From a virus, in the IMG/VR virus record IMGVR_UViG_3300037340_000026, positions 6,220 to 70,219 of that record: a DNA stretch of 64,000 nucleotides. The stretch is one strand, 5' to 3'. Within the stretch, counting starts at the first letter, position 1. Every line of letters starts with the position of its first letter. The translations under genes and the position numbers were made by a program. Shown here piece by piece: positions 50,555-58,382 of the stretch. The notes under the pieces were generated by a model. It was not told where the DNA came from, searched no databases, and worked only from the letters and a program-made list of their open reading frames with translations.

Positions 50555-51199
50555 ATGCGTCCGATAATTGCCACAGTAGGGCCTCTCGCAGCGGCTAACA
50601 CCAGCAACATAGCGGCCTCGCAGACGCCAGCCGGCGCCGGTGCGATGACGCTGAACGGATCGCTGGTCGCCAGCGGCATCGCGATCCTCGACAATCCGCG
50701 GCGCGTGCTGATCACGACGGCCGATACGACGACGGTGTTTACAGTCACGGGCACCACGCCGACTGGGACAGCGATCTCGGATGCGTTCAAGGTCGTCGCA
50801 GGTGCCTCGTACACCGGTCAAGATTTCAAGACCGTAACGTCCATCACGACTAACCAGGGCACGACGGCTGCCGTAACGGTGGGCACGAACGGGATCGGAT
50901 CCACCCCTTGGGTGCGCACGGATGAGTGGGCCAATCCGGCGCTGTCGATCCAGTGCGACGTGTCTGGCACCGTGAACTACACCGTTCAGGCTTCGAACGA
51001 CGATCCGAACGATCCGACGAATCCCGTACTGCCGAGTGCGATGACGTGGATCAGCACGAATGATCCGGCAGGCGTCGCCGCGACGGGCGCGATCTTGACG
51101 AACTACCTGTTCGCGCCGCGGTACGTGCGAATTTTATTGAACAGCGGGACCGGATCAGTAACCGCGACGGTGACTCAATACAACGTGGTGAACCGATGA
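50555..51199 (+). CDS. structural protein (two beta domains)
   Basis: GGAG SD; FTVTGT, FKTVTSI, VGT, YTVQ..DDP. Confidence 0.6.
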   Translation: MRPIIATVGPLAAANTSNIAASQTPAGAGAMTLNGSLVASGIAILDNPRRVLITTADTTTVFTVTGTTPTGTAISDAFKVVAGASYTGQDFKTVTSITTNQGTTAAVTVGTNGIGSTPWVRTDEWANPALSIQCDVSGTVNYTVQASNDDPNDPTNPVLPSAMTWISTNDPAGVAATGAILTNYLFAPRYVRILLNSGTGSVTATVTQYNVVNR

Positions 51200-55532: not shown

Positions 55533-58382
55533 TTGAAGCTCAGGACTCTCTCTCTCGTGCTCGGCGCGCTCTACGCGCTGTGCGCGGTCGTGCCTGCTAT
55601 GGGCGGTCCTCAGCAGATGCTGTTGATGTCCTACAGGGCACAGGTGGTCTCAGCCCCTCCGGCATTCGTTCAGGCCAATAGCAGTCACACCTCAGCCGGC
55701 GTGACTTCTCAGACCGTGGTATTCAGCGGCGCACAGAGCGCGGGCGATCTGAATGTTATAGCGATTGGATTTTGCAATTCGACTTCCACGATCAGTTCGG
55801 TTGCCGATACCGAAGGCAACACTTATGCGGTAGCGGCCCCAGCGACATCAGCCTCAACCAATCTGACGCAGGTGATTTACTACGCTCCGAGCATTGCTGC
55901 TGCTGGAGCTGGTGCGAACACCGTAACAGTCACATTCAATGTATCGACGCCCTGCTCAGATGTACGCATAGCCGAGTACAGCGGAATTTTCCTAGCCTCG
56001 CCGGTCGACACCACCGCCAGCGGTAGTGCCACTACGGGCACTGCGATGAGCAGCGGTTCTGCGAGCACGTCCAATGTGGTCGATCTCCTGGTCGGCGCCT
56101 CCTATAGCGCCGGCGGATTCGCGAGCGCAGGATCCGGCTACACCAATCGTGTTACGAGTTCCGGGCCCAACAATCTTCAGGATGAGATTGTAAATTCCGC
56201 CGGCCCATATAGCGCTACTGCGACGAATGGCAGTTCTGGCTATTGGGTCATGCAGATGGCGGCCTTCAAAGGCTCGAGCGGAGCGCCTCCTGCTCCCCCG
56301 ACAACCCTTGCAGGTCTTGCCGTCAGCGGCAACCATTTCATCAATAGCGCCACGGGCGCGACCGTCCAACTCGCCGGTGCCGCGATCAGCGGCATGGAAG
56401 GGCAGCAAGGTAGCTGGACAGCACTCGCCCAAGTCACTACCTCGCAGTGGGGGGCTATTGCCGCGAAGTACGGCATCAACATGCTGCGCTTCCCGATGAA
56501 CTCTGCGTACTGGATCAACAATACCGTCTATGACGATCCAGCCGAGCCCGGCGGCGGCTCGTGCTGCTATACCTCGAGCGGCACCAATCAGTACACGCCA
56601 GATCCGAGCGGGACTTACCAAAGCGCGATACAGACAATCGTCGCCAATGTCACGGCTGCGGGAATCGTCGCCGATCTTGATCTGCACTGGGATGGGCCGA
56701 AGAACACCTCGACCAATAACCCCATCGCACCCATCGGTCAACCGGGACTGGCGAGTGGTGACTACGCGCCGGTCTTCTGGACGCAAGTCGCGAACACCTT
56801 TCTGAGTAACCCGCTTGTTGTGTTCGAACTCTTCAATGAGCCGTTCGGTGGTGCGAACTACAACAGCAGCTGCCCGAACTGCGCGCTCATTGGTAATAAC
56901 TCAAGCGCTGTGCCGAGCGGTTATGCGATCAGCATGATTGCTGGCGGATCCTTCTCCCCATACCAGATGCAGATGCAGAAGAACAACGCCAGCAATGCGC
57001 TGTTTAATCTCACCGGCTGCGGGACCGCCTGCAATGGCGCTGGCATGGAGCCTCTGATCACGGCGATTCGCGCGACCGGCGCGACCAATGTCATCCTTGC
57101 CGCACCGATCTGGTATGCCGGAGGGATTCAGACGTGGCTGGCCAGCTATACGACCACCACCTACGGCGGATTGACTACTGGGAATCCAGACCCGCTCGGA
57201 CAACTCGGAGTCTCTTGGCATCAGTACCGATGGAATGGCGGAACGGCGCCCGTCTATAACGTGCTGTCCAACGGCTATCCGATCGTCATCACCGAGACAC
57301 AGGGCTTTAATGCTGCCAACGATGGCGGTACTTTTAGCAATAACGCCTATCCGTGGGCCTTCAGCCACAACATAGGGGTTGAGATCTGGGCCTGGGCGAC
57401 CTGGGCCGATGGCGGCTGTTCGACGGGGACGTGCTTCTACAATTACATGAACTCGACGCCGCCGTGGTCACTCAATTCAGTTCCCGCGCCTGCCGGCAAC
57501 ACCTTCGGCCAAAGCGTGCTCACTGGTGGTAGCAATGCGCCTGGTCCGGCTGCGGCGGTCGGTTACACCACGCAGACATTCAATTCAATCACGGTAGGCA
57601 CAAGCATAGGCCAGCTACAGAGCTACACATTCTTCGGCAACACCGAGCCCGGTGGGTGCATTGGCACCAGCGGCGCGAATCTGCTCCTCGGAGCCACTGC
57701 AAACTGCAATTATGGCGTGAGCACTGCACATTCCACTGGAGGGAGCAACTGGGCTGGCATCGCCTTCGGTGGCGGCGCTTATTTTGAGGCGACCTATTCC
57801 CTTGGTGCTACGCCTACCGGTTCCGGAGTCGCTTGGTGGGCCAACGACATTGAGCATGAAACAGCAGGCAATCCGGCCTATACCAGCTGGGTAGAGCCTG
57901 ACTTCTTTGAGTACGATACTGCCCACAATAATGAAAATGGCATCAGTGACTGGAACTGGTACAACTGCCAGAGCGGCGGTCCGCACTGCAGCAGCAGCAG
58001 CAACATCAATGTCGAAACTCCCGCCATCAGCGGCGCCAGCCCGATCACCTATCCTGGCGGAGTGCTTAACACAGGCACACACCGCTGGGGCTGGCTGTGG
58101 GTGCCGGCGACTGCCAGCACTCAGGGGTACAGCAAGAGATTCATCGATGGCGTGCAGATTGGCCCGACATCGTATTGGAATCTCTACAACGCGACTACAG
58201 AGCTTTGGAGCGGAAGCGGCGCACAGCCGGCTAACTTCCCGCCAACCGCTAGCGGCGTGACTTTCAACGTGATTGATACATTGCACTTGGCGCCTATCCT
58301 CGGCGGAAGTAACAGCGTGAAGATGACGGTGAGTTCGGTGGTGGTCTGGCAGGCATCATCCGCGAACAACCTGGTCCACTGA
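55533..58382 (+). CDS. multidomain glycoside hydrolase (beta domain + GH5 + GH16-like) with possible signal peptide
   Basis: LDLHW, FELFNEP, PIVITET (GH5); WVEPDFFE (GH16-like); clear similarity to 10801-13164; TTG start uncertain. Confidence 0.75.

Follow-up and report, generated by a model that had tools for sequence, protein, structure and literature searches.

A swapped cassette of signal-bearing, cysteine-rich genes between the capsid and adaptor genes of an SU10-like podophage

Virion proteins of tailed phages are generally taken to fold and assemble in the reducing cytoplasm of the host cell. The genome in IMG/VR virus record IMGVR_UViG_3300037340_000026 raises the question of what three consecutive genes with apparent Sec signal peptides are doing among the structural genes of such a phage. 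The stretch analysed here, referred to as the window (64,000 nucleotides), comprises bases 6220-70219 of this 70,219-base record, which is rated complete by CheckV; the encoded gene set identifies a podophage of the SU10-like group. The three genes, at 51196 (gene 1), 54464 (gene 2) and 55533 (gene 3), lie between the capsid gene and an SU10-type adaptor gene and are followed by a tail fibre gene at 58382 (gene 4) (Table 1). A first-pass annotation made from the sequence alone had pointed to three n/h/c signal N-termini at this place and to the lack of a signal peptide in the next fibre gene; both observations were borne out, and the N-termini and cysteine strings that it quoted are present in the sequence. 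Its proposal that the products are exported and oxidatively folded is indirectly supported because the signals are kept in kind while their sequences diverge, because Gln occupies position +1 in 11 of 11 gene 2 orthologues, and because the mature cysteine number is even in 23 of 23 signal-bearing relatives (a set that includes close relatives and does not amount to 23 independent events). On this sequence evidence, we consider export of the products of genes 1-3 highly probable. Where the exported proteins would act is much less certain, and is weighed below.

Signal peptides and paired cysteines

Signal peptides were called not with SignalP but with a home-made n/h/c rule that asks for a positive n-region, an uncharged hydrophobic h-region of ~8-18 residues and small residues at positions -3 and -1. 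The gene 1 signal (residues 1-17) comprises MKR, 13 hydrophobic residues and a predicted cut at AWG/Q; that of gene 2 (residues 1-18) has MKR, an h-region and a predicted cut at CLA/Q, and that of gene 3 (residues 1-24) has MKLR, an h-region and a predicted cut at AMG/G. With the lipobox and the twin-arginine translocation (Tat) motif defined as is customary, inspection by eye found neither a lipobox ([LVI][ASTVI][GAS]C) in register nor a twin arginine in any of the three. Applied to longest-ORF (open reading frame) starts, the rule flags 3 of 87 ORFs; with refined starts it yields four signals of the signal peptidase I (SPase I) type, in genes 1-3 and in a paralogue of gene 3 at 10801, plus three lipoboxes (9333, 10367 and, on the minus strand, 24195). 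The rule flags no core protein of the head or tail, the adaptor-like and nozzle-like proteins have no signal, and none was found in gene 4. In 12 distant relatives, only 1 of the 54 ORFs of at least 180 aa downstream of the capsid gene was flagged, and that one weakly. These signals are likely to be more than chance.

The assigned start codons are consistent with translation from the upstream positions. The gene 1 ATG at 51196 overlaps the preceding stop codon (ATGA) and has GGTGA 5 nt upstream, and the gene 2 ATG at 54464 lies 8 nt after AAGGA; a longer gene 2 ORF, from 54407, begins inside gene 1 and would still yield a signal peptide. Gene 3 starts with TTG at 55533, one base past the gene 2 stop. 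A start downstream of the hydrophobic segment, which the first-pass annotation had named as a danger to its proposal, was called in gene 3 by another gene caller, at Met23. This alternative is countered by two relatives: Met23 is replaced by Ile in L098, and P0380, which is 88% identical to the gene 3 N-terminal domain (N-domain), carries a different signal directly before the same domain.

Conservation in homologues, judged by the same rule, extends to all three genes. The gene 1 signal is retained in 4 of 4 orthologues, L007 and L098 included. P0254 is 99% identical to gene 1 and has 19 of its 20 mismatched positions within residues 2-21; by eye, these comprise seven conservative substitutions and two indels, and the segment is still a signal, ending AFG/Q. 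The signals of the 11 gene 2 orthologues all differ in sequence, with an invariant Ala before the Gln, small residues at -3 and -1 in every case, and a CxxxxC pair after the Gln in 9 of 11. The gene 3 signal is retained in L098, P0006 and P0380, and the L007 orthologue has a weak n-region, MMDR. Gln follows the predicted cut in every relative of genes 1 and 2 and is absent from +1 in gene 3 and its paralogue. Gln at +1 was also seen in signal-bearing fibre-like genes of two other phage lineages, L006 (6705-8696 and 8698-11538) and L016 (4777-6183).

The mature proteins of genes 1, 2 and 3 contain 14, 4 and 14 cysteines, respectively. In the gene 2 family the mature cysteine number is even in 10 of 10 signal-bearing members, at 1.98 Cys per 100 aa, as against 21 of the 60 signal-less members with any cysteine (50 of 110 have none), at 0.22 Cys per 100 aa. 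In the family sharing the gene 1 shaft, the corresponding figures are 13 of 13 signal-bearing members at 1.15 Cys per 100 aa, and 42 of 91 signal-less members with any cysteine at 0.44 Cys per 100 aa, so that cysteines are 3-9 times denser in proteins with a signal. Of 80 fibres with the gene 2 tip domain that were sampled from IMG/VR, 74 are complete ORFs (the other six are 5'-incomplete), and none of these 74 bears a signal; the signal therefore appears to be the derived state. Fibres that gained a signal seem also to have gained paired cysteines.

A recombined cassette of two fibre-like genes and an enzyme

Comparison with the relative L007 defines the limits of the block. DNA identity is ~87% up to 51383 (gene 1 residue ~63), similarity is absent from the remainder of gene 1 and throughout genes 2 and 3, and it resumes at 58379-58817, corresponding to gene 4 residues 1-145, and again from 60415. 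Gene 4 thus shares its first ~145 residues with L007, and its distal part is swapped. In L098, another gene 1 body (760 aa) stands behind the same N-terminal module (N-module), and an extra signal-bearing gene has a C-terminal knob 69% identical to that of L007 gene 1. The usual order in the 12 distant relatives, which are those with DNA downstream of the capsid gene (capsid ~80-84% identical), is capsid, a 216-aa protein, adaptor, a 244-aa protein and a large signal-less fibre starting MANxxIxNLP. The three genes thus form a recombination-swapped cassette that is present in this sub-lineage only. The signals are confined to this swapped accessory cassette, one member of which is a host-type enzyme; the nozzle carries no signal, and there are natural pairs in which the signal has been exchanged. 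In L104 (12699-17897), two large genes without a signal (906 and 824 aa) occupy the cassette's insertion point between capsid and adaptor; this point is a possible hotspot of accessory fibre genes.

All three genes had been described as fibre-like in the first-pass annotation. Genes 1 and 2 are indeed fibre- or spike-like, but gene 3 encodes an enzyme, not a fibre. Behind its signal lie a beta-rich N-domain (residues 40-250; 55650-56282), a GH5 barrel (~260-590; 56310-57302) and a C-terminal domain (C-domain; 670-949; 57540-58379). The GH5 assignment is based on PF00150 (54.5 bits against a cut-off of 23.5, residues 285-625) and on a structural model with a predicted local distance difference test (pLDDT) score of 92-98 in the N-domain, ~88-97 in the barrel and below 50 in the C-domain. 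The modelled (beta/alpha)8 barrel matches 5ccu_A with Z 20.5 (root-mean-square deviation 3.6, 263 residues aligned) and 4hty_A with Z 20.1, and Foldseek also returns the GH5 fold (E 4.8e-9). Residues R319, H385, N435-E436-P437, H563, Y565 and E588 are invariant in nine sequences; we take N435-E436-P437 to be the GH5 acid/base motif and E588 the later nucleophile. Gene 3 is thus an active-looking GH5 glycosidase of the secreted bacterial type.

The number of library proteins matching gene 3 at E up to 0.001 is 5351, and no relatives were found in IMG/VR. Of 119 homologues, 114 contain its N-domain, in many cases more than once, and in large bacterial proteins the domain typically stands right behind the signal; the GH5 relatives carry SPase I or lipoprotein signals. 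Named organisms among the N-domain matches (n = 11) comprise eight Acidobacteriota and three Proteobacteria, which describes the range of the domain and not the host. The fold of the N-domain itself found no counterpart in the structure match lists, which were filled by the GH5 barrel, and its atlas scores are below 0.9. The C-domain has no GH16 match in Pfam even at E 10 and nothing relevant in a PDB profile search, and a GH16 label is not supported; it shares with the paralogue only an ExDxxE string. The paralogue carries the modules in a different order (signal, small domain, poly-Ser linker, ExDxxE domain, poly-Ser linker, GH5). It follows holin-like small membrane proteins and two lipoproteins, with a DUF1353 protein nearby; these genes may be a lysis cassette, and no endolysin was identified in the region around 10801. 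Neither gene 3 nor the paralogue has fibre features.

Gene 1 consists of its signal, a Cys-loop N-module (residues 18-63), shaft repeats (~80-200) of a very common and widespread fibre type, a fibre- or tailspike-like body and a C-terminal knob. Sequence-based profile searches of Pfam and PDB returned nothing for this protein. Residues 805-885 match phrog_4636 ("tail spike") with an E value of 3.8e-6 over 80 residues only, and atlas features reach 0.90 to viral clusters and only 0.85 to PF12708 rows; these are weak leads to a tailspike. Gene 2 has a conserved N-module with the string CARGWC, followed by a shaft and by a tip domain of virion type (residues 244-353; window 55193-55522). Its C-terminal ~195 columns match signal-less fibres (hhalign probability 99.9, E 1.4e-34), and in a full-length profile comparison of signal-bearing and signal-less fibres the C-terminal part alone aligned. 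The fold of the tip matches phage spikes and baseplate parts with Z scores of 12.6, 11.4 and 10.7. No full-length relatives of gene 1 or gene 2 were found in cultured phages, nor was any cultured phage found with the signal-bearing form of gene 2. Alignment of gene 2 against IMG/VR gave tip-domain matches only, and a metagenome scan with its N-module gave one locus.

Where the exported proteins would act

The reading we favour, to which we give about an even chance, is that the products of genes 1-3 act as free extracytoplasmic proteins. Late in infection, the host Sec machinery would carry the three proteins across the inner membrane, where signal peptidase I would trim them and disulfide bonds would form as they fold in the periplasm. 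Gene 3, like its paralogue, would be an active GH5 glycanase of a bacterially secreted type, and genes 1 and 2, derived from fibres or tailspikes, would bind or cut glycans, the three genes together forming an exchangeable module aimed at host surface sugars. Acting from within, the free proteins might loosen or remove polysaccharide of the infected cell's envelope or matrix; after lysis, the released proteins would act on debris and neighbouring cells rather than being built into the particle. This reading is favoured over later attachment to the virion because gene 3 and the paralogue are secreted-type enzymes, because the core tail has no signal, because the phage also has a fibre without a signal (gene 4 could fill that role), and because there are cellular precedents for exported proteins of fibre or tailspike type. 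The paralogue, moreover, lies outside the structural module and has poly-Ser linkers, both of which were counted against virion membership.

The precedents are likened here by description. WceF of Pantoea stewartii is described as an exported protein of trimeric phage-tailspike fold that cuts the cell's own exopolysaccharide (EPS) and retains a P22-tailspike-like N-terminal domain, with no virion involved in the account given (PMC7949094). It differs from the phage proteins in being bacterial, in lying in an EPS gene cluster and in having a Tat signal, whereas the phage proteins have no twin arginine and are encoded in a virion operon. The MAT fibres of Bdellovibrio, as described by Caulton et al. 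(2024, PMC10769870), combine a signal, an invariant N-domain and phage-like trimeric fibres with swapped tips; they are displayed outside the cytoplasm and one of them binds prey glycans. Unlike the present genes, these are adhesins of a cellular predator and not phage-encoded, with an N-domain of ~130 aa as against ~45 aa in gene 1. Gene 3 resembles secreted bacterial GH5 glycanases (4hty, 1tvn, 5ccu) in its barrel (Z 19.6-20.5), catalytic signature, signal and multi-domain layout, as does the paralogue in its poly-Ser linkers; it is unlike them in being phage-encoded, in occurring as two domain-shuffled copies and in being fused to the beta-rich and ExDxxE domains. Among phages, Sec signals, some with Gln at +1 (the Q-rule), have been described in Porphyromonas phage genes and read as use of host secretion (Matrishin et al., 2023, PMC10367356); in the main text of that paper these genes encode capsid, spanin and five proteins of unknown function, and there are 0 occurrences of "tail fiber". 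Literature searches that covered main texts turned up no account of Sec signals in the fibres or tailspikes of tailed phages (Supplementary Data 4 of Matrishin et al. might list more genes). To the extent of those searches, the suggestion in the first-pass annotation that this is an undescribed system met no contradiction in print.

The observations that weigh against free action come mostly from the likeness of genes 1 and 2 to virion parts, and several of them speak for a different outcome that we regard as possible but doubtful. In this two-compartment assembly, heads and core tail would be built in the cytoplasm, and the products of genes 1 and 2 (in L098, the main fibre itself), with gene 3 possibly as a passenger, would be exported by Sec, trimmed to an N-terminal Gln, disulfide-bonded and snapped onto the particles at holin lesions or at lysis. 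The gain would lie in host-recognition proteins stabilised by disulfides, which cannot be produced in the reducing cytoplasm. Canonical fibres of the SU10-like podophage group begin with MANxxIxNLPxAxxLxGxEQxExVQxG. Like them, the gene 2 family has a layout of putative anchor, shaft and tip and gene 1 has common shaft repeats, and like podovirus fibres and tailspikes the genes here combine conserved N-modules with swapped distal parts; they differ from canonical fibres in their cleavable-looking signal and in their raised and always even cysteine content. A hidden Markov model (HMM) of the anchor, built from eight canonical signal-less main-fibre N-termini and searched against 603 ORFs, matches the signal-bearing L007 gene 2 orthologue at residues 44-83 (E 1.2e-8). 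It also matches a signal-less 165-aa protein of this phage at the canonical main-fibre position (genome 923-1420, outside the window; E 6e-9), which is far shorter than the fibres of relatives (394-1639 aa), is stub-like and may serve as a docking piece. Over all fetched proteins this HMM gave 14 matches, all of them signal-less and 13 beginning at residues 1-4. The mature N-terminus of gene 2 is in register with the canonical anchors, although weakly (hhalign P 0.006; best non-self E 0.06 and 0.63 with the reverse HMM), and its tip matches the Pa223 capsid spike (Z 12.6) and residues 79-180 of CBA120 TSP4 (Z 10.7). By these comparisons, the gene 2 family probably descends from the canonical virion tail fibre of this phage group. 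Residues 23-59 of gene 1 hardly vary across four proteins that share 32-38% identity in their bodies, and an invariant N-module with a swapped body looks like the behaviour of a virion anchor. The recombination breakpoints lie at module edges exactly as in the true fibre gene 4; genes 1-3 are tightly packed with that gene in a late structural operon, and in L098 the main-fibre position is occupied by a gene with a signal. In vitro, P22 heads accept added tailspikes.

Other findings count against such docking. The gene 2 of this phage itself is not significant against the anchor HMM (E 3.1). The L098 gene matches the 165-aa protein only at a non-significant BLASTP E of 0.068 and is a positional observation only. 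Gene 3 and its paralogue, as noted, have no fibre features, and the proteins would be diluted after lysis. We know of no precedent for export followed by docking, and none was found in the literature searches. Conserved N-domains, in addition, are described in exported cellular fibres that never meet a virion, namely WceF (PMC7949094) and the MAT fibres (PMC10769870). Two further points weigh against free action: the 10801 paralogue has an odd mature cysteine count (5), and action outside the cell before lysis needs a route across the outer membrane, for which no candidate was found.

An objection to both readings is that the proteins are not exported at all. The hydrophobic N-termini would then be uncleaved membrane anchors, virion-retained helices for membrane work in infection or mis-called starts; the proteins would assemble in the cytoplasm like ordinary fibres, and their cysteines would oxidise only after release. 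The use of a home-made rule in place of a trained predictor leaves room for this, as do the Met23 start of the other gene caller and the weak n-region of the L007 gene 3 orthologue, and the signal-less gene 4 also has 11 cysteines. We nevertheless consider it improbable: from the upstream starts the reading frames stay open and the genes are tightly coupled, Met23 is not kept in L098, small -3/-1 residues and Gln at +1 are kept throughout the gene 2 orthologues, the signal region diverges but retains its form in P0254, cysteine enrichment and even parity track the signal, and gene 3 has bacterial relatives that are clearly either secreted or lipoproteins. Slightly less probable again is that the fibre-like proteins are exported and kept in the envelope of the infected cell, masking or destroying the phage's own receptor glycan and so blocking superinfection and sparing progeny from loss on debris. 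For protein receptors, this role is filled by lipoproteins such as T5 Llp. The same export evidence applies here, and exchange of the modules goes along with that of the host-range gene 4, as expected if the same variable glycan is recognised; but genes 1-3 have no lipobox and no envelope anchor after cleavage, and expression from a late structural operon is late for exclusion.

With export, the genes would amount to a host-range cassette adapted to the oxidising side of the membrane, an unusual trait among structural genes of tailed phages. If the favoured free action is correct, the phage ships its own secreted kit for cutting and binding glycans, which bears on exit from and spread through polysaccharide matrices and could be a source of disulfide-stabilised enzymes. 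Docking would instead represent a new assembly pathway, and signal peptides on fibre genes would be functional features rather than start-site errors, a point of concern to annotation pipelines and phage engineers. The question could be tested directly on pairs that occur naturally, namely a mature protein found behind different signals and a fibre family whose members either have or lack a signal.

Gene neighbourhood and host

The features are listed in Table 1. In addition to the proteins given there, the phage encodes a DNA ejection protein.

Table 1. Features of the phage genome (window positions unless marked as genome positions)
Feature	Position	Strand	Length	Match or remark
Gene 1	51196-54426	+	1076 aa	Fibre- or spike-like
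Gene 1 signal and N-module	51196-51384	+		Left edge of swapped block
Gene 2	54464-55531	+	355 aa	Fibre
Gene 3	55533-58382	+	949 aa	GH5 enzyme; TTG start
Gene 4	58382-60406	+		Collagen-like tail fibre, no signal; right edge of signal-bearing block
Gene 3 paralogue	10801-13164	+	787 aa	GH5; signal-bearing
Large terminase	37097-38734
SU10-type portal	40160-42538			PF23899
Major capsid protein	48626-49540			phrog_371
Terminator-like hairpin	50510-50536	+		11-bp stem then T run; between capsid block and 214-aa gene
Backbone protein	50555-51199	+	214 aa	No signal; stop overlaps gene 1 start
GT2 + TPR glycosyltransferase	60414-61469	+		phrog_13126, E 7e-97; no signal; conserved cassette flank
SU10-type adaptor-like protein	62166-62864	+		PF24175, 29.2 bits against cut-off 27; no signal
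Second SU10-adaptor-like protein	genome 1559-2347
Nozzle-like structural protein	genome 2351-4396		681 aa	phrog_3287

The 214-aa protein upstream of gene 1, for which no Pfam or PHROG family was matched, is kept across the wider phage group, where it directly precedes the adaptor gene. The hairpin ahead of it is possibly an attenuator for the cassette; it comes from a consensus-only terminator scan that returned 23 sites in the region against 15.8 expected. Another terminator-like hairpin, at 47315-47378, is followed at once by the region's best sigma-70-like promoter match (TTGACA, 18-nt spacer, AATAAT; 11 of 12 positions), ahead of the head genes. The three lipobox proteins are encoded at 9333-9689, 10367-10777 and 24195-25100 (minus strand); one has a weak Rz-like spanin match (phrog_812, E 3e-4), and the 301-aa minus-strand lipoprotein has no family match.

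The portal relatives in GenBank belong to phages of diderm hosts, such as Caulobacter, Pelagibacter, Roseobacter and cyanobacteria. A host search by alignment of the GH5 sequence against genome contigs found nothing. A scan with the capsid protein found 19 relatives in metagenome-assembled genomes (MAGs) of at least 10 unrelated lineages, and because of this spread MAG binning is uninformative on the host. The MAG labels of these relatives (L099-L117; capsid ~80-88% identical) include Verrucomicrobia, Methylococcales, Paceibacterota, Planctomycetes, Anaerolineales, Nitrospiraceae and several Proteobacteria, and the placements are probably due to mis-binning of viral contigs. The Q-rule of Bacteroidetes describes Gln at +1, as pyroglutamate (PMC5837995, PMC10653852). 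A Bacteroidota host, considered on account of the Gln in genes 1 and 2, is not supported, as gene 3 and the paralogue do not have it.

Four genes encode homing or HNH endonucleases (35253-36077, 48103-48636, 61466-62182 and 62738-63769), one directly before the capsid gene and two flanking the adaptor gene. The ends of the record overlap as two alleles: genome 1-199, at the 3' end of the adaptor gene, corresponds to window 62667-62865 with 86% identity, and a second match joins genome 303-425 to window 63878-64000 with 97% identity. Because the copy at the record start has no counterpart of the homing endonuclease ORF 62738-63769, the assembly seems to combine two variants, with and without the endonuclease, of a single circular or permuted genome.

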